A stretch of 18,045 nucleotides of DNA from contig JAWLBU010000052.1 in the NCBI GenBank assembly GCA_041687555.1, positions 1-18,045 on the forward strand. Direction: 5' to 3'. This document shows, piece by piece, positions 1 through 18,045 of the stretch. The notes below the pieces were generated by a model. That model saw only the letters and a list, made by a program, of their open reading frames with translations. It was not told the origin of the DNA and ran no database searches. The stretch comes from Haloplasmataceae bacterium (GTDB taxonomy: Bacteria; Bacillota_I; Bacilli_A; Haloplasmatales; Haloplasmataceae). Position 1 is the first letter of the stretch, and every line of letters starts with the position of its first letter. The translations under genes and the position numbers were made by a program.

Positions 1-185
1 ATCTCGCTTATAACTTAAACGAACCGCCGTATACCGAACGGTACGTACGGTGGTGTGAGAGGTCGGTAAATAAAATAATTATTTACCTCCTACTCGATTG
101 TGAGATACTAATAAAGGTTAAGTTTTTGAATAAATAGAAATTATTCTCTTATAAAGATGGAAAATTTGAAGTTTATTCATAATTC

Positions 186-3814: not shown

Positions 3815-3849
3815 ATTATATATAAAACATTACGATTACATGATATAAT
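3786..3849 (+). promoter_or_regulatory. Promoter region for the GGDEF/HD-GYP gene: TTGACA (3786-3791), 18-nt spacer, TATAAA (3810-3815), and an extended -10 TGATATAAT (3841-3849)
   Basis: Consensus hexamers read directly. Both lie upstream of the preferred start codon at 3882. Confidence 0.45.
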
Positions 3850-3881
3850 TGTTTATGAAACCCATCAAAGGAAGTGTTAGT

Positions 3882-6470
3882 ATGAAGGATTGTAGTGAAT
3901 TGTTGGATTATGCCAATATCGGATATGTCCTATGTGAATTAAAAAAGGAAAATGAAATTATAAAATGTCCGATTATTGAATATAATCAGATTTTTATGCA
4001 GTTTTTTGGTCAGGGACAACATATGGAAAGCGACTTAATTCAGTTGTTAATTAATATAAAAACAATATCGCCTGATTTTTTAGCTGAATGTGAAACAAAA
4101 TTAAGTAAAAAAGAAGGTTTCAGCTCGTTTGTTTATTCACTACAGTTAAAACAGTGGATGCAATTAGAAGTGGCGTATCTGGAAAATAATCGGGTTATCG
4201 TTTATGCCAAACCAATACCTTCATCCTTTGTACCGTCTGATAAATTAAGCAAGGCCCAATTGTTTAATAACAATTATATTGAGGAAATAAACAATGTTTT
4301 ACTGGCCATGAATGAATTATTAATTAATTCATTTGCCGAGGAGAATTTATTCAAGGGATTAGGTTTAACCGGTCAGGCTTTTGTGATAGATAAAATTACG
4401 ATGTTTAAGTTAACTGACAATACAGTAAATAAATTGACAGAATGGAAAAATGATAAGTATCCCGTGGATGATAAAGAGTTGAATTATGATAATGATGTTA
4501 TCCAGGTGCTCAAGGAAGAACTTAAACATAAACCATATTTTTGCTCTACAGAAAGTAAAAGAGATATCCTAACCAGGTTTTTTACGGATTTACAGATTAA
4601 AGCTTCAACAATCATACCAATCATCGTAAAAAATTCCTTATGGGGATTTTTACAGCTCGATGACTACAAATTAGAACGGATTTGGTTGGATGACGAGCTA
4701 TATTTACTACAGCTCTTAACCAGTACCATTTCTAAAGAAATTGAACGGAAATTGACGGAACAAGAGGTTGAAAACTTAAGTTATCGCGATAGCTTAACGG
4801 GATTATATAATCGTCGTTATTTTGAGATTTGTTTTAAGAATTTGGATACGGAGATCAATTTGCCCATATCAATCATTGTGGGAGATGTGAATGGTCTAAA
4901 ATTAGTCAATGATGCGTTCGGTCACACAAGCGGTGATGATCTTCTAAAGGAAGCTGCTAAGGTGATTTTAGATGAATGTTCTGATAATGATATTATCGCC
5001 AGGTGGGGCGGAGATGAATTTATCTTTCTTCTACCAAACACAAGCCTAACCGAGGCGCACAATTTAATTAACCGGATTAAGGAAAAGGGGAAAAAGACGA
5101 TCGTTCATTCCATTCCTATTTCCATATCTTTTGGCGTGGATACTAAGGAAAATCCGGATACGGAATTAGATAAGACGCTTAAAAAAGCGGAAGATGTTAT
5201 GTATCAACAGAAATTAATTGAAAGTGCGGTCATTAAAAAACAAAACATCAATTCGATAATGAAAGCCTTGTATGAACTGGCTCCGCTTGAAGAAGAACAT
5301 GCTAATCGGGTCAGTGAACTATGTGCGCAAATTGGACTAGCTAGAAACTTTGATCAGTATGGTATCCGTTATTTGAGAACAATCGGTTTATATCATGATA
5401 TCGGGAAAATCGGCATAGATAAAGAATTATTAAATAAGTCAGACAGTCTTACCAAAGAAGAATGGAAAGAAATGAAAAGACATTGTGAGATTGGTTATCG
5501 TATTTTAAGCACATCAACCGAAATGGCGGAAATAGCCGACTGTGTGCTGCATCATCATGAGTTTATCAATGGGGAGGGATATCCCAACGGGCTAATCGGT
5601 GATGAAATTCCTATCATGACCAGAATTCTTAGCGTGGCTGAGGCCTATGATGAGATGTCCAGTCCGAGACCTTATAAGAAAATAATGTCTGAAGAGGAAA
5701 TAATCGCTGAATTAATCAACAATTCGGCAACGCAGTTTGATCATAATATTGTTCGGACATTTGTGGAAAAGGTCCTACGGAAGCCATGGTACAGTGTCAT
5801 CCGGGGAGCAAATAATACGGTGATCACTCTCGGACAGAATTTTGACCCCCTACATGGAGTTTCGATTCATGATAGTAATGATGAAAATTTATCGATAAAA
5901 GATTTACAGATTATCGGCAGTGTGGATGTGAACAAAACCGGCAATTACAGTATTATTTACAGTATCACAAACAAATACGGACAGACGGAAAGGTTGTTAA
6001 GAAAAGTTTCCGTGGGTATTTTGCGGGAAATCCTCAGTCCGGACTTAAATGCATTTCACAAGATTCAAATCGAAGGCTCTGATTTTTCCTATGAAAATGA
6101 GGATGAAACGATAAAAATAAGATTAATCAAAGGCGGAAGAAATGTTTGGTCTGCCCAACTCGTTTATCCACACTTAAATTTGGTTAAAGGGAAGGAATAT
6201 GTTCTTTCTTTTGAGGCGTTTTCCAACCAATGCCGTAAGGAAATGCACATCAGTATCGGATGGAACGATTTTGAAAACAATTACTGGCATTCCTTTTTAA
6301 GTACCGTTGATAATAAGTATTACTTATCAAAATCACCGCAAACCTATAAATTAATGTTTAAGATGAATAACGATTCTAGAGTAAATTCTGACTTAAAATT
6401 CGAATTCGGAACGGGTGAAAATAGCGAAATCGGCATCAAAAACATCCATGTATATGAGTATATTAAATAA
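3882..6470 (+). CDS. Multidomain c-di-GMP signalling protein: PAS/GAF-like N-terminal region, GGDEF diguanylate cyclase, HD-GYP phosphodiesterase, and a C-terminal Ig-like (DUF5011-like) plus CBM_4_9-like beta-sandwich module
   Basis: AAAGGAAG Shine-Dalgarno 7 nt before the ATG at 3882. The track's ATG at 3849 has no Shine-Dalgarno and overlaps the -10. DxLTGLYNRRYF, RWGGDEF (5007-5021), YHDIGK (5394-5399) and HHHEFINGEGYP (5550-5585) are read from the translation. The C-terminal VDVNKTGNYSIIYSITNKYGQT and VWSAQL...LVKGKEYVLSFEAFS patterns are typical of Ig-like and CBM folds. No signal peptide or TM helix. Confidence 0.85.
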   Translation: MKDCSELLDYANIGYVLCELKKENEIIKCPIIEYNQIFMQFFGQGQHMESDLIQLLINIKTISPDFLAECETKLSKKEGFSSFVYSLQLKQWMQLEVAYLENNRVIVYAKPIPSSFVPSDKLSKAQLFNNNYIEEINNVLLAMNELLINSFAEENLFKGLGLTGQAFVIDKITMFKLTDNTVNKLTEWKNDKYPVDDKELNYDNDVIQVLKEELKHKPYFCSTESKRDILTRFFTDLQIKASTIIPIIVKNSLWGFLQLDDYKLERIWLDDELYLLQLLTSTISKEIERKLTEQEVENLSYRDSLTGLYNRRYFEICFKNLDTEINLPISIIVGDVNGLKLVNDAFGHTSGDDLLKEAAKVILDECSDNDIIARWGGDEFIFLLPNTSLTEAHNLINRIKEKGKKTIVHSIPISISFGVDTKENPDTELDKTLKKAEDVMYQQKLIESAVIKKQNINSIMKALYELAPLEEEHANRVSELCAQIGLARNFDQYGIRYLRTIGLYHDIGKIGIDKELLNKSDSLTKEEWKEMKRHCEIGYRILSTSTEMAEIADCVLHHHEFINGEGYPNGLIGDEIPIMTRILSVAEAYDEMSSPRPYKKIMSEEEIIAELINNSATQFDHNIVRTFVEKVLRKPWYSVIRGANNTVITLGQNFDPLHGVSIHDSNDENLSIKDLQIIGSVDVNKTGNYSIIYSITNKYGQTERLLRKVSVGILREILSPDLNAFHKIQIEGSDFSYENEDETIKIRLIKGGRNVWSAQLVYPHLNLVKGKEYVLSFEAFSNQCRKEMHISIGWNDFENNYWHSFLSTVDNKYYLSKSPQTYKLMFKMNNDSRVNSDLKFEFGTGENSEIGIKNIHVYEYIK

Positions 6471-7129: not shown

Positions 7130-7504
7130 TTATGTTATTCCTGCAATTCCGGAAGGAGTTTCAAGGAGGGCATTATCCTGCTTAAGTGTTGCTTTGATTA
7201 AGTAAATTGCCGCAAGTACGGAAAAAAGTCGGCTTATCAGTAAATCCTTGGCAGAGCTAATACTAATGGGGTCCACATAGTCTTTGCGATTAATTAAATC
7301 GTCATAATTTTTTTTCGCAATACCTAAATCGATAAAAGCCGATATGGATGCCATATAAACGGCTATAATCAACACTTTGTTGGCTTTATTATTATTTTTT
7401 TGTTCACGTCTTTCAATGATCGATGACTGGATAGATAGAATTTCCCCGATTAATGATAAAAAAGAGCTGATATCGTCTAAACGTTCTAGTTCTTCATTAG
7501 CCAT
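7130..7504 (-). CDS. Hypothetical protein, 124 aa, acidic N-terminus, one central hydrophobic segment (VLIIAVYMASISAFIDLGI), amphipathic C-terminus
   Basis: AGGAAG Shine-Dalgarno 7 nt upstream of the ATG on minus. An extended -10 TGTTATATT lies further upstream. No motif I can assign to a named family. Confidence 0.6.
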   Translation of the reverse strand: MANEELERLDDISSFLSLIGEILSIQSSIIERREQKNNNKANKVLIIAVYMASISAFIDLGIAKKNYDDLINRKDYVDPISISSAKDLLISRLFSVLAAIYLIKATLKQDNALLETPSGIAGIT

Positions 7505-7915: not shown

Positions 7916-7940
7916 AGTAGCTTAAACGCTACTTTTTTAT
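7915..7940 (+). terminator. Intrinsic terminator of the ferredoxin gene: AAGTAGC-ttaaac-GCTACTT plus T-run
   Basis: 7-bp stem plus TTTTTT, starting at the stop codon. Confidence 0.65.
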
Positions 7941-7944
7941 TTAT

Positions 7945-7966
7945 AAAAAAAAGGCCTACGCCTTTT
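7945..7966 (-). terminator. Terminator of the HAD hydrolase gene: A-run, AAAAGGC-ctac-GCCTTTT (a bidirectional-type hairpin)
   Basis: The hairpin overlaps the stop codon of the minus-strand gene by 2 nt. On minus, a T-run follows it. Confidence 0.55.
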
Positions 7967-8768
7967 ATAAAAAGAATTTTTCGATTACATGAGTGATTCC
8001 TTCCTCATCATTTGATAATGTGATGTATTGTGCTTTTTCTTTAATCGGCTGACAGCCGTTGGCCATTGCCACACCAAAACCCACGGCCTCAATTAAATTA
8101 ATGTCATTATAACCGTCACCGCAGGCTATTACTTCATCCTTATCAATTTTTAAATAATCAAGCAGGATTTTTAGACAATTTCCTTTGGCGATGCCTTCGC
8201 TCATAAATTCCAAAAAGTAGGGCATGGATCGGCTAATGGACAAACGATTCTGATAAGTTTCCTTCATGATTTTTTCGACATTGGCCAAATGTAGATCGTC
8301 ACCGGTCATTAAACATTTGACACTTTTTTCTTTAACCTCTGTTTTGAAATCACTTACCTTAACCACCGGTAAATCATTGATCTGTGACTCGATCATGATG
8401 TATTTGTCATAGTCCTGAGTTATGATAAAGTTATCGGTATAAGCTAAGAGATGAGTGTTTAATTTCCGTGACTGGTCAAATAAATCGTTAATGGTCCTAA
8501 GATCCAAATATGAATCAAAAATGATTTTGTTATTTTTTACGTCGATTATTCGTCCACCGTTATATGCCAGTAAATAACCGCCATATTTTTTTAACGCCAA
8601 TATTTCCGTTGCTTTTAAGAGACCATGGGTGGGTCTTCCTGATGCTAAGATAATTTTAACACCTGATTGTTGAATTTTAATAATGGCATCCCTAGTTTTT
8701 GCGGTTATCTGATTATTAGATGTCATTAATGTCCCGTCTAAATCAAGTACGAGTGCTTTATACTTCAT
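7965..8768 (-). CDS. Cof-type HAD-IIB family phosphatase (267 aa)
   Basis: N-terminal DLDGTL motif (LVLDLDGTLM), SGRP, and C-terminal GDGYNDI motif, the classic HAD motifs I, II and IV. AGGTGAG Shine-Dalgarno. Extended -10 TGGTATAAT upstream on minus (plus coordinates 8794-8802). Confidence 0.85.
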   Translation of the reverse strand: MKYKALVLDLDGTLMTSNNQITAKTRDAIIKIQQSGVKIILASGRPTHGLLKATEILALKKYGGYLLAYNGGRIIDVKNNKIIFDSYLDLRTINDLFDQSRKLNTHLLAYTDNFIITQDYDKYIMIESQINDLPVVKVSDFKTEVKEKSVKCLMTGDDLHLANVEKIMKETYQNRLSISRSMPYFLEFMSEGIAKGNCLKILLDYLKIDKDEVIACGDGYNDINLIEAVGFGVAMANGCQPIKEKAQYITLSNDEEGITHVIEKFFL

Positions 8769-8915: not shown

Positions 8916-11660
8916 ATGAAGAAGAATCGAAGAAGTCTTAAAAGAAGCATCAATTATTCATTATTTATATTACTTAATTTATTAATCATTTCATTAATAT
9001 GTTATCATTTTTTTAATAAGTATCGCAACAGCCTAGGAGAAAAGACCATCCAATACAATGAAATTCATCGGAATGTCAATGAATTAGAAATAACCGTCAA
9101 TGAACTAGAACGGATAAAGATCGTATATCTGTCGTATCCCGACGAAGATTTATTGGACCAGTATAAAGGTTTAAAAAGCACCTACAATAAAATCACTATT
9201 TTATCCGCTGTTAATAAATATAACGAGGATTTATTGCCATCTGCTAGGAATTTGATCAGTAAAATCGATTTATTATTTGAAAGTCATGAAAATAATATTG
9301 CGGGAAATCATGAAGAAATCGCAGAAGATATCGAAAAATTTTATGCTGATGTCACAAGTTATCATGTAACAGTAACAGATCAGCTAAATGATAGAATTAC
9401 CGTTTTTCAGTGGTGGTCCTTATTATTAACAGTGATTATTTTTGTGTACTTTGTGTATTTTATGGTAAGAATGTATTACCTTGTGATTAAGCCGATAATG
9501 TTAAGTCAGCAAGTATTAACGGAAATAAATAATGGTAATGAGAAACTACGATTGGTCTATAAATATAAAAATGAAGTGGCTGATTTGATAAATAGTTTAA
9601 ACAGATATATTGACCTGTCACAAAATAGCTTTAAACTTATTGAAGATCAATATAATCGTTTAAAGCTGTATTCTGATATCGGGGAAATCAATTATGTGGA
9701 ATACAGTTATGAAGATAAGATTATTAAAATTAATTACAGTAAGAAATTTGTGGAAAAGTACAATCTGAAAAGTCATATGATAACTTATACCGTCAAAGAA
9801 TTCGCTTCTTTAGTCCATCCGAATGACCGTGAGGCATTCTTTAAACAGTTGGAACAAATAAATGTCTATAAAGACAAAGATTATCAGCTCGATTATCGGA
9901 TCAAATATCCGGAAGCGGATAAGTATTGTTATGTTTCCACGATTGGTAAGATAAACTGTGACAAGGGCGATTACTTCATGGGAGTTCAATTTGATATCAC
10001 ATATTTGAAAGATATTCAAAATCAACTTCAGGAACAGGAAGAGCAATATCGTCTGATTTTGGAGAACTCATCCGATTTAATCGGAAAAATAAGCGCCGAC
10101 GGCAAAATTTTATATGCCAGTAGGGCTTATAAAGAAACCTTTGGGGATAATAAAGAATACATAGATGATTTCAATCACATGGTAAAATGGGCAAATAGTG
10201 ACTGGTTTACCAGTTTATTCAAACCACCCTATACTTCTCATGAAGAAATTTTGGTTAGCACACCGGATGGAGATAAATGGATATCCTGGAATAATGATGC
10301 TATCCTAAATGAAAACAATGAGGTAGAATATATCATTTCCGTAGGTCATAATATTACCGAATTAAAACGTTATAATGATAAGCTAAAGTATGATTCCGAA
10401 CATGATATGTTGACGGATTTACTAAATCGCCGGGGTCTGTTTGACAGATTAAAGCACTTAAGGGACATTAACAGTCTGGCGGCCTTCTTTATCGATTTAG
10501 ATAATTTTAAAAATATCAATGATTTATACGGTCATGAATTCGGTGATAAAATAATTCAATTATTTGCGAAGGATTTAATGGCTTTTAAAGAACACGGATG
10601 TATAATCAGCAGATTATCGGGTGATGAGTTTTTGGTATTGGTACCAAATTTTACCGATGAAGATTCGTTAAAATTCTTTAAAAATTATTTAAATAAACAT
10701 GTGAATAATATCTATCGGGTTGAGGGTATTGATATATATATTACCACAAGTATCGGTTATGCATTATATCCCGAGGATACATCCGATTTTGATAAATTAA
10801 TTTCCTATGCCGATATCGCGATGTATGAATGTAAAATAAATCATTTGAACCGTTGTTTAAGATTTTCAAAAGAGATGTATGAAGTGGTAAATAAAAAAGT
10901 AGGCATCGCAAATGATTTAAAAGTGGCGATAGATAAAGATGAATTTGAGATATATTACCAAGAAATAGTAAACGTAAATACAAATAATGTCGATTATCTC
11001 GAATCATTGGTCAGATGGCACAGCAGTAAAGGAATTATCATGCCCGGAGATTTTATTCCGATTGCCGAGGAATCAGGATTCATCCTGTCCTTGGATTTAT
11101 TACTGATTGAGAAATCATTTAAACAATTCTCGCAGCTAAAGAAGACCAAAAAATATGCTGATACCAAATTGTCGTTTAATGTGTCACCATCATTTCTTTT
11201 AAGAAATAATTTTGTCTCACATATTAATAATTTAGCGAAGAAGTGTCAATTGAAAAATCAGGATATTTGTATCGAAATAAATGAAAATACTTTTGTCAAT
11301 AATATTGAAATATGCCGAAATCAAATAAAAAGTCTTAGAGAATATGGCTTTATCGTAGCACTCGATGATTTTGGCAGGGAATATTCTTCACTGTCAATAC
11401 TTAGCAGAGTTGATTTTGATATTATTAAATTGGACCGTTTATTTATTAATAATCTGGATTTGAAATTAAATATTGAAATAATTAACATGGTTAATCGTAT
11501 CGCCAATCTTACGAATAATTTAGTCATCGTTGAAGGGGTGGAAACGGAAGAACAGGCGAAGTTATTAAGGAAAATGGGATGTTTCCTAATGCAGGGCTTT
11601 TTATTTTCCAAACCGTCTAAAATTAATATTGAGGAACTGCTCGTATCAGAAAAGTATTAA
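8916..11660 (+). CDS. Membrane-anchored sensor: two TM helices flanking a ~130-aa extracytoplasmic domain, then PAS domains, a GGDEF domain with an SGDEF variant motif, and an EAL c-di-GMP phosphodiesterase domain
   Basis: TM segments LFILLNLLIISLICYHFF and WWSLLLTVIIFVYFVYFMV. DLDNFKNIND plus RLSGDEF (10617-10631). EAL-domain motifs YQE, ESLVRW (11001-11018), DDFGREYSSLS, EGVETEE and QGFLFSKP are all present, suggesting an active phosphodiesterase. Confidence 0.85.
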   Translation: MKKNRRSLKRSINYSLFILLNLLIISLICYHFFNKYRNSLGEKTIQYNEIHRNVNELEITVNELERIKIVYLSYPDEDLLDQYKGLKSTYNKITILSAVNKYNEDLLPSARNLISKIDLLFESHENNIAGNHEEIAEDIEKFYADVTSYHVTVTDQLNDRITVFQWWSLLLTVIIFVYFVYFMVRMYYLVIKPIMLSQQVLTEINNGNEKLRLVYKYKNEVADLINSLNRYIDLSQNSFKLIEDQYNRLKLYSDIGEINYVEYSYEDKIIKINYSKKFVEKYNLKSHMITYTVKEFASLVHPNDREAFFKQLEQINVYKDKDYQLDYRIKYPEADKYCYVSTIGKINCDKGDYFMGVQFDITYLKDIQNQLQEQEEQYRLILENSSDLIGKISADGKILYASRAYKETFGDNKEYIDDFNHMVKWANSDWFTSLFKPPYTSHEEILVSTPDGDKWISWNNDAILNENNEVEYIISVGHNITELKRYNDKLKYDSEHDMLTDLLNRRGLFDRLKHLRDINSLAAFFIDLDNFKNINDLYGHEFGDKIIQLFAKDLMAFKEHGCIISRLSGDEFLVLVPNFTDEDSLKFFKNYLNKHVNNIYRVEGIDIYITTSIGYALYPEDTSDFDKLISYADIAMYECKINHLNRCLRFSKEMYEVVNKKVGIANDLKVAIDKDEFEIYYQEIVNVNTNNVDYLESLVRWHSSKGIIMPGDFIPIAEESGFILSLDLLLIEKSFKQFSQLKKTKKYADTKLSFNVSPSFLLRNNFVSHINNLAKKCQLKNQDICIEINENTFVNNIEICRNQIKSLREYGFIVALDDFGREYSSLSILSRVDFDIIKLDRLFINNLDLKLNIEIINMVNRIANLTNNLVIVEGVETEEQAKLLRKMGCFLMQGFLFSKPSKINIEELLVSEKY

Positions 11661-11729: not shown

Positions 11730-12524
11730 ATGCTAAAAGAGATTACGACAATTATAGAAACAGTAGATGACAGTAAAAACAGGATAATCTCACCTAAATT
11801 AATTTATAACGACAAGTTTTTATTAAGCTTAATTCTGAAATGGTTTGTCAGGCAATCACATTTAATTGTCAATTCGGACCTTGATCGGAAAATATGTAAA
11901 GCTTGTCAGTTAATTGACGGGTCAAGATTTTATATAAATGCGACGATTGAAACTCCTTTTAAAGTACGAAAAAAGGGGGAAAAGGATGTTTTAGCCGAAG
12001 CCAGTGCGACTGTCAGCGGTGCTGTGGGGCATTTTTCAATCCGCTACGGTAAGAAAAAAGAAAAATTGATACTCTTACCCGATGCCGGACAATTTGTCAT
12101 ATTGGAGACAACAATGATAAAACCGTTAAAAAAAGGCGGCAAGAACATGAGAAAGTATCATCAAATCGCTAAGGATATCGGTTGTATGGTGCATACCCTG
12201 AGTCAAATAGAAAATAAATTCTTAGATTATCTGGGTTTATATGTTTTTGCTCCGGAAACTGTTCTCCAATTAGAAACGTTCAAAACTTACACATATAAAC
12301 CAAGCATTGAAGAATTGATGGTAAAAAGAGTCGAACCATACGGTGATGACGAAGACAAGCTGTTATTTATCGATTTATTCAGACGTTTATTTCAACGGAT
12401 AGATATTGATTGTATTTCGTTTGAAGACATCATCAGGTTTATCAAGAAAAATGATGCGGAGTACGGGGATAATTTATTATCTTTTTATGATAAATGTTTA
12501 AGATATCATGGCTTAATTGCTTAA
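11730..12524 (+). CDS. Hypothetical cytoplasmic protein, 264 aa, no recognisable family
   Basis: Strong AAGGAG Shine-Dalgarno 10 nt upstream. No strong terminator separates it from the upstream PAS-GGDEF-EAL gene. A terminator lies downstream. No TM helix. Contains a Lys-rich GKKKEKLILLPDAGQFVILETTMIKPLKKGGK segment. Confidence 0.6.
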   Translation: MLKEITTIIETVDDSKNRIISPKLIYNDKFLLSLILKWFVRQSHLIVNSDLDRKICKACQLIDGSRFYINATIETPFKVRKKGEKDVLAEASATVSGAVGHFSIRYGKKKEKLILLPDAGQFVILETTMIKPLKKGGKNMRKYHQIAKDIGCMVHTLSQIENKFLDYLGLYVFAPETVLQLETFKTYTYKPSIEELMVKRVEPYGDDEDKLLFIDLFRRLFQRIDIDCISFEDIIRFIKKNDAEYGDNLLSFYDKCLRYHGLIA

Positions 12525-12674: not shown

Positions 12675-13781
12675 ATGCGAGTAATAAAATGGTTCTTTAT
12701 TCTTTCTTTTATCGTCGTTATCGGAATTCCGTCCGCAGTAATCGGTGCTGCCCTGATAAAAGACGAAAAACCTCCTGCCTATTTAAGTGAAGTGGATCTT
12801 AATGAATTTGACGGTGAAGAAGCTATTTTAGCCGAATTAGATAAGTTTATCATTCAATTTATTTCGGGAGATCAAAGTATCACTCTTGATGAAAAAACGG
12901 TCAATAAATTAATTTATGCAAACTACCATGGCTTTAAAGACGATAAAACAAAAATAGTCGTTAATGATGACATAGTTATTCATATCGAGGGCTTTTGGAC
13001 TGATTTTGAAAATGATGAATTAACATTATATACAATTTTACGCAATGGTAAAGTTAGTACTTCTTTAACTTTAAAAGCCAAAATTACGACATCCGAAGAT
13101 AGTTTATCAATCGAATTTGAAAGATTTAAGATTGGGAAACTTCCTATACCGAACAGTGTTTTTGTTACTTTATTAGATAATTATGGGTCATCAATTACTA
13201 GTGAATATGAATATGGAACAATAGATACCGAAAAATTAATCATTACGGTCGACAAAGAATATATTCAGGACGAATTGGAAAAGGCTATGAACAGCAACCT
13301 GATCTTATTTGATAGTTTAGTTTTTCAGAAGAATCAGTTGGTTATTAATTGCGATTTAAATGCCGAAATTAATCCCGATGCTGCCGTTTTACTTGAAACA
13401 ATAGATGAGATTAAAAGAATCGTAAATGATGATTCATTATTAAATAATGTCAAAAATAGATTAGATGATGATGACTTGACAGCGGATGAAAAGAATAAGG
13501 TAGATGATTTCATTGATGAGTTAACGGAATTTAATGAAATCATTAAAAGTAAAATCGAAAATCCTACGGGTGTAAGTGCTGATGATTTAGAAACAATAAA
13601 CGGTTTACAGGATAAATTTAACGATATTCCTGAAAGCAGTAAACAGGAAGTAGTTTTAGCACTTGAAGAAAGTATCGATCCCAATATCAAGGAACAATTA
13701 TTAGAAACTTTGGAATCTTTAGGTATTTCAGGTTTTGAAAATGTATCCGATTTAATATTTGGCACGGGTTCGTCAAAATAA
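12675..13781 (+). CDS. Hypothetical membrane-anchored protein, 368 aa. It has an N-terminal signal-anchor helix, a large extracytoplasmic domain and a very acidic C-terminal third.
   Basis: AAGGAG Shine-Dalgarno 8 nt upstream. N-terminal WFFILSFIVVIGIPSAVIGAALI with no lipobox Cys. The remainder is hydrophilic and Asp/Glu-rich. Strong terminator downstream. Confidence 0.6.
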   Translation: MRVIKWFFILSFIVVIGIPSAVIGAALIKDEKPPAYLSEVDLNEFDGEEAILAELDKFIIQFISGDQSITLDEKTVNKLIYANYHGFKDDKTKIVVNDDIVIHIEGFWTDFENDELTLYTILRNGKVSTSLTLKAKITTSEDSLSIEFERFKIGKLPIPNSVFVTLLDNYGSSITSEYEYGTIDTEKLIITVDKEYIQDELEKAMNSNLILFDSLVFQKNQLVINCDLNAEINPDAAVLLETIDEIKRIVNDDSLLNNVKNRLDDDDLTADEKNKVDDFIDELTEFNEIIKSKIENPTGVSADDLETINGLQDKFNDIPESSKQEVVLALEESIDPNIKEQLLETLESLGISGFENVSDLIFGTGSSK

Positions 13782-15935: not shown

Positions 15936-15943
15936 TTAATTAA

Positions 15944-15974
15944 AACGTAAAGGTTAAAAACTTTACGTTTTTTT
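15944..15974 (+). terminator. Intrinsic terminator: AACGTAAAG-loop-CTTTACGTT plus T7
   Basis: 9-bp stem plus a T-run, 9 nt after the stop. Confidence 0.7.
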
Positions 15975-15988
15975 AATAAATAATGTTA

Positions 15989-16017
15989 TTTGCATTTTTC
16001 GGCAAATTATCTTAAAA
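15989..16017 (+). promoter_or_regulatory. Sigma-A-type promoter: TTGCAT, 17-nt spacer, TAAAAT. It is the dedicated promoter of the ATPase plus HEPN-like gene pair.
   Basis: Hexamers and spacing read directly from the sequence. Confidence 0.5.
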
Positions 16018-16052
16018 TATAAGTAACAAACAAAAGGAAAGTGTGGTAGGGT

Positions 16053-17198
16053 ATGTTACTTCAATTGTCAGTGGAAAATTTTAAGTCAATTAAAAAACCC
16101 ATTGTCTTATCAATGGTAGCCGCAAAAGATGATACACATCTTTCATATCTTCATAATATAAATAATTATCAAATTTTACCATCATCACTTATTATCGGTA
16201 CGAACGGTGCGGGTAAGTCTAATCTGTTTAGAGCCATAAAATATTTACAAGCTCTATTAAAAGCCGGGAATCATGATTTATTGGTTTATCCCCATCTATT
16301 AAGCGGAGATAAATCTCCAACTAAGATTGATATTCAATTTCTGGTTAATGAAAAAAGGATTGCTTACGGTTTTGATGTGCTAAAGAATCAGGTTGTGGGC
16401 GAATATCTATATGTAATTGATGATGAGGATGAAATGGTATTTGACAGAGAAGGCGAAAACTATGAATTTGGTTCTGTCTATCAGGAAGAATTTAATAATT
16501 TAGCCAAGGAATACGGTTCATTAAAAAAGCTGTTTTTACCGATTTTAACAGAGTACTGTGATAATCATCTATTTAAAGATATCTACCGATTTTTGACAGA
16601 AAATATCTATGTGATTTTATCCGACAGCTTGGACGATACCGCTTATTTTCAGGAAGCATTGGAACAATATAGAGAAGTGGGTAATCCTGAGAGAATCAAT
16701 GAATTAATGAAGAGTATCGATATCGGTATAAATGAATTCGCATTAATTGGTAATGACATTATCGTAAAATATCGTAATATGGAAATTAATATTTTGGATG
16801 AATCCACAGGAATGAAAAAATTATTTACTTTATTAGTTTTATTAAGTGATGCCTTGAAAGACGGTAAAGTCATCTTATTTGACGAATTGGAAAGAAATCT
16901 TCACCATGCCTTTGTTTTATATTTTATTCATTTATTTAATGATCCAAAGATAAATACCAACAATGCCCAGTTAATCTTTTCGGCGCATCAGACACAATTA
17001 CTCGACCTTACGATTTTTCGGAAAGATCAGATTTGGTTTATGGATAAAGATATTAAAACAATGATGACGGAATGTTATTCATTATATAATATTGAAAATG
17101 TAAATATTTCAGAAAATGTTGAGAAAGGGTATCTTTTAGGGAAATATGGAGCTACATTCGCATTTAACCATGGTGGGGTAAAGAAGGATGAAAAATAA
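16053..17198 (+). CDS. SMC/RecF-like ABC ATPase of the AAA_21/AAA_15 (defence-associated) type, 381 aa
   Basis: N-terminal LQLSVENFKSI. Walker A GTNGAGKS (16197-16220). Signature-like DESTGMKKLFTLLVLL. Walker B ILFDELERNLH. H-loop FSAHQ. The architecture matches the stand-alone ABC ATPases of PARIS AriA, Septu PtuA and AbiL-type systems. The Shine-Dalgarno is weak. Confidence 0.8.
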   Translation: MLLQLSVENFKSIKKPIVLSMVAAKDDTHLSYLHNINNYQILPSSLIIGTNGAGKSNLFRAIKYLQALLKAGNHDLLVYPHLLSGDKSPTKIDIQFLVNEKRIAYGFDVLKNQVVGEYLYVIDDEDEMVFDREGENYEFGSVYQEEFNNLAKEYGSLKKLFLPILTEYCDNHLFKDIYRFLTENIYVILSDSLDDTAYFQEALEQYREVGNPERINELMKSIDIGINEFALIGNDIIVKYRNMEINILDESTGMKKLFTLLVLLSDALKDGKVILFDELERNLHHAFVLYFIHLFNDPKINTNNAQLIFSAHQTQLLDLTIFRKDQIWFMDKDIKTMMTECYSLYNIENVNISENVEKGYLLGKYGATFAFNHGGVKKDEK

Positions 17199-17886
17199 TC
17201 GGTTTGAATTATATAACAGAGAACAAGAAAAAAGAACGAAAAAAATTCGCTACCTTGATAAAGATGCCCAGGAAATAATTGATACCTTTAGAAATAACAT
17301 TAATCGGATTAAAAAGCAATTTAAAATTGTCGATGGCTTACAACAGCAAAATAAAAGTGAAGAAGCCAACGATATTTTACGTTTTCAAATCGTTTACGCC
17401 ATGAGTGCATTGGATTTCTTTATGCATGAATTATATGTGTTTAGTTTTCTGAAGATATTTAAGAATGAGATGCCTAAGACGGAGCGATATTTAGAATATA
17501 AAGTACCGTTGAAGTTAATAGAAAAGGCTTTATATGATGCGGAAAATATCGATACTTACTTAAAAGATGCTTTTATCGAACTTAACAGCAATTACACATT
17601 TATGTCATCTAGCAGGATTAAAGAATTATTAAACATGATCGCCGGAAATGATGAATTTAATGAAGCGGAAAGAAGATTAAAGAACAAACGTGTTATTAGA
17701 CAACATATCCGTTTGGATAATTTAATCGATCATATTTATGAAAGAAGAAATAAAATCGCTCATCAGACGGATATTAATCATGGTGAAGATGACAAAAACA
17801 TCATCACAATGGATGATGTCGAATATTATATCGATGTTATTGACAATTTTGTTGAGGAAATCTATAAAACAATATATATAAAATAA
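17188..17886 (+). CDS. Alpha-helical protein, 232 aa, with a C-terminal R-x4-H (ERRNKIAHQTD) HEPN-like motif; a putative RNase effector partner of the upstream ATPase
   Basis: It overlaps the ATPase gene by 11 nt, indicating translational coupling. A GGTGGGG Shine-Dalgarno lies 9 nt upstream. The R-N-x3-H motif (17743-17766) is followed by a polar residue and sits about 35 aa from the C-terminus, as in many HEPN families. There are no Cys or His clusters, so it is not an HNH nuclease. There is no TOPRIM-like acidic pattern. Family assignment is inferential. Confidence 0.6.
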   Translation: MKNNRFELYNREQEKRTKKIRYLDKDAQEIIDTFRNNINRIKKQFKIVDGLQQQNKSEEANDILRFQIVYAMSALDFFMHELYVFSFLKIFKNEMPKTERYLEYKVPLKLIEKALYDAENIDTYLKDAFIELNSNYTFMSSSRIKELLNMIAGNDEFNEAERRLKNKRVIRQHIRLDNLIDHIYERRNKIAHQTDINHGEDDKNIITMDDVEYYIDVIDNFVEEIYKTIYIK

Positions 17887-17915: not shown

Positions 17916-17952
17916 TAGCCGGCTACTTAATAGGGCCGGTTATTTTTATTTT
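17916..17952 (+). terminator. Intrinsic terminator: TAGCCGGC-loop-GCCGGTTA plus TTTTTATTTT
   Basis: 8-bp GC-rich stem (one G-U wobble), an 11-nt loop and a T-run. It starts 30 nt after the stop at 17886. Confidence 0.65.
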
Positions 17953-18045
17953 AAAAAAGTTCTTTGTCAAATGGTGTTGGTAAATAAATTTCCAATATCC
18001 TGACTTAATAGGTTTAAGCAGAAATGCTTAGACCTTTTTGCTTAT

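Follow-up and report, generated by a model that had tools for sequence, protein, structure and literature searches.

The window, by which we mean the whole 18,045-nucleotide stretch of DNA that was analyzed, contains two overlapping genes on the forward strand. Gene 1 (positions 16053..17198) encodes a 381-residue stand-alone ABC ATPase of the AAA_21/OLD/AbiLi type that is predicted to act as sensor and gate, and gene 2 (17188..17886) encodes a 232-residue HEPN protein of the RiboL-PSP family that is predicted to be a metal-independent endoRNase effector. Both open reading frames and their 11-nt overlap are as given in an earlier, sequence-only reading of this DNA. On the 5' side, the module is bounded by an intrinsic terminator of the upstream NfeD-like/flotillin operon (15942..15976, forward strand), which consists of an 11-bp hairpin followed by U7 (dG -11.9 kcal/mol, z -3.9 relative to shuffled sequences), and every syntenic relative possesses its own, differing hairpin and T-run at the equivalent position. 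On the 3' side, a terminator-like hairpin (17916-17942) with its U-rich tract (the whole element at 17916..17955, forward strand; dG -14.3 kcal/mol, z -2.2) follows gene 2, in agreement with the claim that the module has its own terminator. The companion claim of its own promoter held only in part. The element TTGCAT-17-TAAAAT (15990..16018, forward strand), read from the sequence, is plausible and is reported by a promoter scan shifted by one base (TTTGCA-18-TAAAAT), and six of seven aligned sequences (the window and six relatives) have a -10-like TAnAAT about equally far from the start codon, but such hexamers prove nothing alone because they are no commoner than in shuffled AT-rich sequence (8 matches found versus 12.9 expected). 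A search for an AbiF/ToxIN-like RNA antitoxin or a repeat array found neither, as the vicinity of the module contains no Rfam family, no tandem repeat and no tRNA.

Gene 1 contains all the nucleotide-binding motifs that the sequence-only reading quoted. The Walker A motif, or P-loop, G49-T-N-G-A-G-K55-S56 (residues 49-56; 16197..16220) is followed by the ABC signature-like motif E250-S-T-G253 (16800..16811), the Walker B residues D277-E278 (16881..16886) and the H-loop histidine H312 in S-A-H-Q (residues 310-313; codon of H312 at 16986..16988), all on the forward strand. Among 20 homologs with identities down to 22%, G49, N51, G54, K55 and N57 are invariant in and beside Walker A; E250, S251 and G253 of the signature, both Walker B residues and H312 are also invariant. 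In Pfam, gene 1 matches AAA_21 (PF13304; 1.2e-22, 81.8 bits, gathering score 27) and AAA_15 (4.7e-8), while AAA_13, the PrrC-type domain, is not among its matches. In PADLOC, the best supported assignment is AbiLi (PDLC02335; 5.2e-74, 247 bits), followed by AriA models at 2.3e-25 and 2.4e-9, which are domain-level matches, and by weak matches to PtuA (about 1e-8). Its ATPase type is thus the one used by PARIS, Septu and AbiL, as had been proposed. The AlphaFold2 model of gene 1 (pLDDT 87.5, pTM 0.87) retrieves Rad50, PtuA and SMC heads by Foldseek at E-values of about 1e-12, consistent with an ABC-head fold, and the OLD-family nuclease 6p74 is its sole sequence match in the PDB. The subclade to which the window's ATPase belongs is missing an insertion of ~35 residues found in relatives of ~420 residues. 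NCBIfam returned nothing meaningful for gene 1 or gene 2. Gene 1 is an AAA_21/OLD-type ABC ATPase whose catalytic motifs are all invariant.

The product of gene 2 matches the Pfam family RiboL-PSP-HEPN (PF18735) over profile positions 5-189 (of 191) at 46.5 bits, where the gathering score is 28.4, and its AlphaFold2 model is all-helical, as predicted earlier, with the helical-bundle fold of HEPN proteins. Its catalytic motif R187-N188-K-I-A-H192 (17746..17763, forward strand), an R-x4-H motif in which the arginine is followed by a polar residue, lies in the segment ERRNKIAHQTD (residues 185-195), from which the sequence-only reading had proposed a HEPN-like protein. R186, R187, N188, I190, H192 and D195 are invariant even in members at 28-37% identity, and 129 of the 148 HEPN family representatives match the pattern R[RK]N.[ILV].H. 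Catalysis by PrrC, RloC and RNase L requires both the R and the H of this motif (Anantharaman 2013). Another conserved block, formed by R65, Q67, D76, H80 and E81 of the first helix of the HEPN domain (17380..17430, forward strand), is invariant in three alignments (A1, A2 and A4); E81 is replaced by C in a human-gut variant. Ahead of the domain lies an N-terminal tail of about 25 residues (17188..17262, forward strand), which has low pLDDT in the model and nonetheless contains conserved positions (L8, R11 and K18). The motif [FL]xLxxRxExxR[DE]K recurs in the tails of the 226-240 aa HEPN class, whereas a ~200-aa class of the same family that is paired with ParA-like ATPases is without it, and the tail may serve to dock the HEPN protein onto the ABC ATPase. 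The HEPN profile has no sequence match in the PDB even at an E-value of 10, and gene 2 shows no match to AbiLii, RloB or DUF4435 in PADLOC or Pfam. Judged by its profile match and motif, gene 2 encodes a true HEPN protein, for which RNase activity is predicted.

The two genes form a conserved unit, as the sequence-only reading anticipated. The ATPase gene immediately precedes the HEPN gene in 9 of 9 reference-genome loci and in all 69 metagenome loci with upstream room, every one of these loci keeping the pair as a unit, and the genes overlap or lie no more than 15 nt apart in 20 of 22 distinct loci. The pairwise distances among the ATPases correlate with those among the HEPN proteins (Mantel r 0.88, a value reached by 0 of 2000 permutations), and the pair co-diverges.

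Relative to AbiL, the effector of this unit has been swapped, because ATPases outside the HEPN-paired clade pair with RloB/AbiLii proteins of the TOPRIM type. Specifically, RloB partners accompany ATPases that share 23-32% identity with gene 1, and the partners in two loci used as positive controls (L023 and L010) match PADLOC AbiLii at 8.7e-31 and 5.7e-13, respectively. A neighbor-joining tree places all the HEPN-paired ATPases in a single clade, beyond which each branch either has RloB as its known partner or has no known partner; the RloB-paired ATPases are about as distant from the window's ATPase as are the Bacillales and Clostridia members of the HEPN clade. The claim that the effector differs from those of known pairs is accurate for two-gene systems of the OLD/AbiL type.

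We propose that the locus is probably an autonomous two-gene conflict module in which an ABC-ATPase sensor is combined with a HEPN endoRNase effector that takes the place of TOPRIM or HNH nucleases. By analogy with related systems, its most likely function would be abortive-infection-type defence with the ATPase gating the HEPN RNase. Under this model, the translationally coupled genes would allow the two proteins to be made together and to form a complex, in which the ATPase would keep the HEPN protein inactive, probably via the conserved N-terminal tail of the latter. The ATPase may sense a phage-derived cue, which would be either a protein of the phage or an abnormal structure of DNA or of replication, and ATP binding or hydrolysis would then change the conformation of the ATPase. 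The HEPN protein would be released or re-arranged such that two R-x4-H motifs meet in a dimer to create a composite active site, and the activated RNase may cut tRNA, mRNA or rRNA, halting translation, so that the infected cell would arrest or die before the phage matures.

A damaged copy of the pair bears on an alternative, in which the HEPN protein is a toxin and the ATPase its neutralizer in a toxin-antitoxin or addiction module without a dedicated anti-phage role, whose loss would be harmful or which would stabilize adjacent DNA. We consider this reading unlikely, although it is the strongest of the rivals. The HEPN gene is split by an IS605 TnpB in Anoxybacillus, and the ATPase gene is frameshifted or deleted in gut strains. 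One of these gut strains (L049) has lost the ATPase and yet retains an intact HEPN gene with a 100% identical protein, and orphan ATPases with no partner also exist; neither is expected of an obligatory pair. The L049 case fits poorly with an ATPase that neutralizes a constitutively toxic RNase, unless the HEPN gene is then unexpressed. The fully conserved ATP-hydrolysis machinery also suggests a regulated switch rather than a passive antitoxin. The toxin-antitoxin and the defence readings are not mutually exclusive.

The surroundings of the pair in its own lineage might instead point to a housekeeping role, in which the pair would be an ATP-dependent host RNase for RNA processing or quality control, possibly together with a membrane-microdomain operon of NfeD and flotillin. 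The order NfeD-like gene, flotillin, ATPase and HEPN is kept in eight relatives (L001, L002, L003, L007, L012, L013, L014 and L026), the genes around the module in the window serve housekeeping or signalling, and the GC content of the pair is that of the genome and its surroundings. This reading is nevertheless improbable. The flotillin adjacency does not extend beyond the lineage, being missing from Anoxybacillus, Bhargavaea, Terrisporobacter, Epulopiscium and 68 of the 69 metagenome loci, and is broken in L001, L016 and L017. In Inordinaticella, flotillin has decayed to fragments with the ATPase-HEPN pair intact, and in L001 two unrelated genes have been inserted between flotillin and the pair. 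All the relatives possess a terminator and a promoter-like site between the two operons. The identities across loci are 78-87% for flotillin but only 47-65% for the HEPN protein and 38-57% for the ATPase, indicating that the pair diverges far faster than flotillin. The pair is also patchy in its distribution, being found in 9 species when 185,579 reference genomes were searched with motif patterns, and pseudogenized copies exist. The flotillin adjacency is a lineage-specific synteny of Haloplasma-like genomes, and a functional link with the flotillin operon, which had already been denied on sequence grounds, is rejected, the adjacency being absent from Bacillales, Clostridia and nearly all metagenome loci. 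It is more improbable still that the HEPN protein has no catalytic role and serves as an adaptor that binds RNA or nucleotides, like the MtlR-type HEPN domains, with the output coming from the ATPase or an unlinked effector, given that R-N-x3-H, a signature of active HEPN RNases (Anantharaman 2013), is invariant across the family and that no other effector gene is conserved beside the pair.

The preferred reading, a conflict module with an ATPase-gated RNase, is consistent with where the pair is found elsewhere. In the lineage of the window, the pair looks vertically inherited and outside any defence island or mobile element, because it occupies a single syntenic site whose neighbors are housekeeping genes (NfeD/flotillin and, in some relatives, MGMT) and has native GC content; the comparison of GC with the surroundings revealed no compositional sign of horizontal transfer. 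Outside the Haloplasma lineage, the pair adjoins a prophage integrase with a cI-like HTH gene and DnaB, and in a common human-gut variant Csm6 is directly upstream of it. Other neighbors there include another HEPN gene, a DuOB gene, another AAA_21 ATPase, a PBECR4 toxin and variable surface loci. Carriage of this subfamily by phages or plasmids was also considered and rejected: it was not found in the viral contigs of IMG/VR, and searches of INPHARED (phages) and PLSDB (plasmids) yielded only distant relatives paired with ParA-like ATPases. The fast divergence relative to flotillin, the contexts outside the Haloplasma lineage and the decayed copies are the behavior of a conflict-type system.

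The principle of ABC-ATPase-gated, RNA-targeting abortive infection is not new, because PrrC, RloC, APECO1_4465 and ERFG_01251 are all ABC ATPase-HEPN fusions (Anantharaman 2013) and because effector swapping in OLD-ABC dyads with exchanged nucleases is an already described theme. We found no description in the literature of a dyad of an AbiLi-type ABC ATPase and a RiboL-PSP-HEPN protein, although Krishnan et al. 2020 (NAR 48:10045) might contain one. The suggestion that the combination is uncommon or undescribed is therefore correct for the two-gene dyad in the literature searched but not for ABC plus HEPN as such, which is established in fused form. Neither the HEPN partner nor the dyad has a model in PADLOC v2, which called no complete system; current annotation tools would call only an orphan AbiLi, so that such loci are missed or mislabelled. 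We tentatively suggest, with somewhat less than even confidence, that the dyad is a distinct, unnamed anti-phage system distributed across Firmicutes, among them a prevalent human-gut lineage that carries it beside the type III CRISPR nuclease Csm6, and, more broadly, that RiboL-PSP-HEPN may be a plug-in effector for at least three unrelated gates (ABC ATPase, ParA-like ATPase and ParB/DUF262, as in PD-T4-2), with a partner-specific N-terminal tail choosing the gate. The gut variant beside Csm6 and the ParA-HEPN modules of Pf phages and Burkholderia plasmids suggest such wide reuse. If validated, the dyad would extend the AbiL/PARIS/Septu group of defence systems gated by ABC ATPases with a branch that uses an RNase, and the logic of PrrC and RloC would also be present as a split two-gene system. 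Related ATPases driving a metal-dependent TOPRIM nuclease on the one hand and a metal-independent, dimer-activated HEPN nuclease on the other would then be a natural comparison for how one sensor scaffold controls different nucleases.

Among the known systems, AbiL (AbiLi and AbiLii), or RloAB, is alike in ATPase family (AbiLi, 5e-74) and in layout, in which the ATPase gene precedes a small effector gene that is close to it or overlaps it, but its effector is RloB/TOPRIM, whereas that of the window is a RiboL-PSP-HEPN protein with no AbiLii match. PARIS (AriA and AriB) likewise combines a stand-alone AAA_21/AAA_15 ABC ATPase with a separate nuclease. AriA senses a phage protein and activates its tRNA-cutting partner, and the logic proposed here is similar, in that an ATPase would sense the trigger and a released or activated nuclease would attack RNA (tRNA in PARIS). 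AriB, however, is a metal-dependent DUF4435/TOPRIM protein, while the partner in the window would, by analogy, be a metal-independent and dimer-activated HEPN nuclease; AriA resembles gene 1 at the domain level only, and gene 2 has no DUF4435 match. Septu (PtuA and the HNH protein PtuB) is more remote, with weak PtuA matches (~1e-8) and a HEPN gene where Septu has an HNH gene. HEPN-MNT, the type VII toxin-antitoxin system, uses a minimal nucleotidyltransferase as antitoxin, whereas the neighbor of the HEPN gene in the window is an ABC ATPase with no NTP_transf match.

Two further systems are similar in the HEPN protein rather than in the gate. PD-T4-2, a validated two-gene anti-T4 system, consists of DUF262 and HEPN proteins (Vassallo 2022, Table S1), and its HEPN component is listed under PF18735 in a 2023 review. 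The window pair is not PD-T4-2: the partner in that system is a ParB-like DUF262 protein instead of an ABC ATPase, no DUF262 gene is present in the window module, and the HEPN protein of PD-T4-2, at about 170 aa, is the shorter of the two and bears only a remote similarity to gene 2, the PADLOC model PD-T4-2_B matching gene 2 weakly (E-value of 0.01) and the Epulopiscium homolog at 2.7e-5. The modules of a ParA-like ATPase (AAA_31) and a RiboL-PSP-HEPN protein in Pf-like phages and Burkholderia plasmids share the HEPN family (PF18735, 6.8e-14) and the gene order, with the P-loop NTPase first and the genes overlapping or abutting. Their NTPase, however, is a ParA/MinD-type deviant Walker ATPase unrelated to ABC ATPases, their HEPN protein is without the N-terminal tail, and they are sited on mobile elements; these apparently uncharacterized modules are not PD-T4-2 either, as they have no PADLOC match. 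PrrC and RloC are HEPN anticodon nucleases that are regulated by an ABC ATPase (Anantharaman 2013) and present the same combination in anti-phage abortive infection. Each is a single polypeptide in which a Rad50/SbcC-like ABC domain is joined to a PrrC/RloC-type HEPN domain, whereas the window module comprises two open reading frames, without AAA_13, that encode an OLD/AbiLi-type ABC ATPase and a RiboL-PSP-type HEPN protein.

The two genes of the module are forward-strand ORFs of 381 aa (gene 1, 16053-17198) and 232 aa (gene 2, 17188-17886) that overlap by 11 nt, as the sequence-only reading had described them, and every motif quoted in that reading is found in the translations: GTNGAGKS (residues 49-56), E-S-T-G (250-253), D277-E278 and S-A-H-Q (310-313) in gene 1 and ERRNKIAHQTD (residues 185-195) in gene 2. 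Gene 1 is matched by the Pfam families AAA_21 (1.2e-22) and AAA_15, and among PADLOC models best by AbiLi (5.2e-74), followed by AriA, PDC-M12A, HEC-01A, MAD3 and PtuA. Its AlphaFold2 model (pLDDT 87.5, pTM 0.87) resembles the ATPase heads of Rad50, PtuA and SMC, and its sole PDB sequence match is an OLD-family nuclease. No variation occurs in Walker A, E-S-x-G, D-E, Q306 or H312 among 20 homologs with identity down to 22%, from which gene 1 is expected to be catalytically competent. In the ~410-430 aa ATPases of Bacillales, Clostridia and gut bacteria and in RloB-paired relatives, an insertion of ~35 residues separates the helical region from the signature motif (columns about 298-335 of alignment A3); the Haloplasma-type ATPases (366-394 aa) lack it.

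The HEPN identity of gene 2, guessed earlier from a single motif, is correct: the protein matches HEPN_RiboL-PSP (PF18735) over nearly the whole profile with 46.5 bits, above the gathering score of 28.4, and AbiU2 and Swt1 HEPN more weakly. R186, R187, N188, I190, H192 and D195 are invariant in its homologs, members of 28-37% identity included, and so are R65, Q67, D76 and H80 of a first-helix block. The R and H of the HEPN motif are essential to catalysis in PrrC, RloC and RNase L (Anantharaman 2013). A HEPN profile search of 1.84 billion representatives yielded 1,222 clusters at E <= 1e-3, including 57 at E <= 1e-30, and the best 150 matches fall into two classes, one of 226-240 aa with an N-terminal peptide, [FL]xLxxRxExxR[DE]K, and one of 196-209 aa without it. 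This tail is present in every ABC-paired member examined. For L002 (Mycoplasmatota bacterium CP074573.1, a complete genome), the HEPN gene is called as 204 aa after an 84-nt gap behind the ATPase (7916-8001); residue 20 of the query is the first with similarity, and the tail may thus have been lost or put out of frame.

The tail-less members examined are partnered by a ParA/CbiA-like (AAA_31) ATPase, and are found on metagenome contigs, beside the integrase of Pf-like filamentous Pseudomonas phages and on 12 Burkholderia plasmids, most of them conjugative. This parallel two-gene module, in which the ATPase gene (~341-351 aa) is followed by an overlapping or abutting gene for a tail-less RiboL-PSP HEPN protein (~202 aa), is found in Pseudomonas phage WX-TY (L020:1956-3588), unannotated in Pf1 (AY324828.1, 429-914), on a Burkholderia glumae plasmid (L021:2865-4504) and at L005:2674-4330. 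It matches no PADLOC system and appears to be uncharacterised. Members of the RiboL-PSP HEPN family are recorded as L-PSP fusions or "in operon with ParB" (Anantharaman 2013), and the family appears to combine with various partners. It includes an experimentally supported defence member, since PD-T4-2 ("DUF262, HEPN") was validated against T4 and is placed under PF18735 in a 2023 review.

The ATPase and HEPN genes form a conserved unit. All close homologs of the HEPN gene (Haloplasmataceae, Haloplasma contractile, Inordinaticella and assemblies labelled "Bacilli" or "Mycoplasmatota"; 45-65% identity) have an ATPase gene directly upstream, as do the remoter ones of Bhargavaea, Anoxybacillus, Terrisporobacter and Epulopiscium. 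Of the 80 loci that a metagenome scan yielded, 11 are cut by a contig end upstream, and an AbiLi-like ATPase is immediately 5' of the HEPN gene in 69/69 loci with upstream room. In 20 of 22 distinct loci, the two genes overlap or are spaced by <=15 nt. Distances among the HEPN proteins closely track those among their ATPases (Mantel r 0.88 overall and 0.94 in the non-Haloplasma subset; 0/2000 permutations reached either value). Co-divergence is expected for any co-inherited neighbours; within the HEPN-paired clade, it indicates that partners have not been shuffled.

The pair had been credited with its own promoter and terminator and with no functional link to the flotillin operon upstream. Hairpins with U-runs do flank it on the forward strand, one downstream of flotillin (15942-15976, z -3.9), the other downstream of gene 2 (17916-17942, z -2.2). 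The promoter-like TTGCAT-17-TAAAAT (15990-16018, +) is by itself weak evidence, because such sites are no commoner than in shuffled sequence (8 found versus 12.9 expected in a generic scan). When the flotillin-ATPase spacers of the window and six syntenic relatives are aligned, each has a hairpin and T-run of its own, every one different, and 6/7 have a -10-like TAnAAT about equally far from the start of the ATPase gene, with little conservation in the remainder; the pair is thus plausibly a separate transcription unit.

The window's order of NfeD-like, flotillin, ATPase and HEPN genes is repeated in eight loci (L001, L002, L003, L007, L012, L013, L014 and L026), and part of the synteny further upstream is also common to the window and its relatives. 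The adjacency is broken at L001, where genes for a GH1 glycosidase and an Imm5-like immunity protein lie between flotillin and the pair (4137-6318); at L016, where no flotillin is near the pair; and in Inordinaticella fortuita (L017:4547-4694), where an intact pair is accompanied by just two short remnants of flotillin and by no NfeD-like gene. Flotillin is also absent from every locus examined outside the Haloplasma-like lineage. The adjacency is lineage synteny and not a functional requirement, in agreement with the earlier claim. Integrases, an rve transposase and DUF6431 a few kb downstream in L001 suggest a variable region. Across the syntenic genomes, the pair evolves far faster than the neighbouring flotillin (identity of 38-57% for the ATPase and 47-65% for HEPN versus 78-87%), and its GC content is native.

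Elsewhere in the window, positions 22-98 (+), right where the contig begins, match the Rfam group II intron family RF00029 over its full 77-nt model (47.7 bits), which represents the domain V/VI region. No Pfam match was found for the ORFs at 245-970, 1870-2400, 7130-7504(-), 11730-12524 and 12675-13781; the 264-aa and 368-aa ORFs among them have counterparts at the corresponding place in relatives (30-58% identity). The window also encodes two large proteins of cyclic-di-GMP turnover, at 3849-6470 and 8916-11660, with the architectures GAF-GGDEF-HD(HD_5) with Ig-like domains and PAS-GGDEF-EAL. RelA_SpoT and EAL genes are found downstream of the pair's common human-gut variant, and the presence of signalling genes near both pairs is probably a coincidence.

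This gut variant (L036:1215-4615; ~38 near-identical contigs, L028-L065) is directly downstream of Csm6 (CARF-6H-HEPN match, 3.5e-60), presumably bordering a type III CRISPR locus, which places two predicted HEPN RNases side by side. Other pairs adjoin a tyrosine integrase, a cI-like HTH gene and DnaB (Terrisporobacter), a DuOB protein gene and a PF05168 HEPN gene (Epulopiscium) or a second AAA_21 ATPase (L099), or have a PBECR4 toxin nuclease nearby (L095). The Bhargavaea and Anoxybacillus pairs are inserted at one common site, with a DUF4080 radical-SAM gene on one side and lut/GntR genes on the other; other loci belong to capsule or choline-binding-protein regions or have housekeeping genes around them.

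Decayed copies also occur. In Anoxybacillus flavithermus CP020815.1 (L008:7253-9720), an IS605 OrfB/TnpB splits the HEPN gene at ~residue 73 downstream of an intact ATPase gene. In gut contig L064 (2662-3914), the ATPase gene has a 1-nt deletion at nt 680, which may be an assembly error given the low coverage, and in L049 (3741-4615) only its last ~170 nt are left; both HEPN proteins are 100% identical to that of the intact locus. Retention of an intact HEPN gene without its ATPase in L049 is a hint that the HEPN protein does not kill constitutively by itself, and promoter loss could equally explain it.

In PARIS, sensing of a phage protein by AriA leads to activation of its tRNA-cutting partner, and the HEPN anticodon nuclease of PrrC/RloC is kept in check by an ABC domain as long as no phage cue arrives (Anantharaman 2013). 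By analogy with these systems, we propose for the pair that the ATPase may keep the HEPN protein inactive via its N-terminal tail, that a phage cue with ATP binding or hydrolysis would release or re-arrange it, and that a HEPN dimer would bring two R-x4-H motifs together for RNA cleavage and hence translation arrest.

The ABC-HEPN combination is established as a fusion (PrrC, RloC, APECO1_4465 and ERFG_01251; Anantharaman 2013). A 2026 preprint catalogue of ABC-coupled effectors gives HEPN only for PrrC/RloC, and a 2026 survey presents as a general pattern the OLD-ABC dyads whose second member is TOPRIM, HNH, REase or PIN. We found no description of a two-gene system of AbiLi-type ATPase and RiboL-PSP HEPN in the literature searched, Krishnan et al. 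(2020) lying outside it, and PADLOC v2 holds no model for the HEPN effector. ATPases with 23-32% identity to gene 1 precede a gene for a RloB-like protein, and L023 and Buttiauxella L010, whose partners match PADLOC AbiLii (8.7e-31 and 5.7e-13, respectively), are genuine AbiL/RloAB systems; some other relatives are orphan ATPases. In a neighbour-joining tree without bootstrap support and with few labelled tips, one clade holds all HEPN-paired ATPases, and the RloB-paired and orphan ATPases are outside it. Gene 2 has no AbiLii, RloB or DUF4435 match in Pfam or PADLOC, and the suggestion that the effector differs from those of the known pairs is borne out for the two-gene OLD/AbiL-type systems. 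The window pair shares ATPase type and architecture with AbiL and differs from it in the effector; therefore it is AbiL-like in its AbiLi-type ATPase and architecture, and its HEPN effector places it outside AbiL itself.
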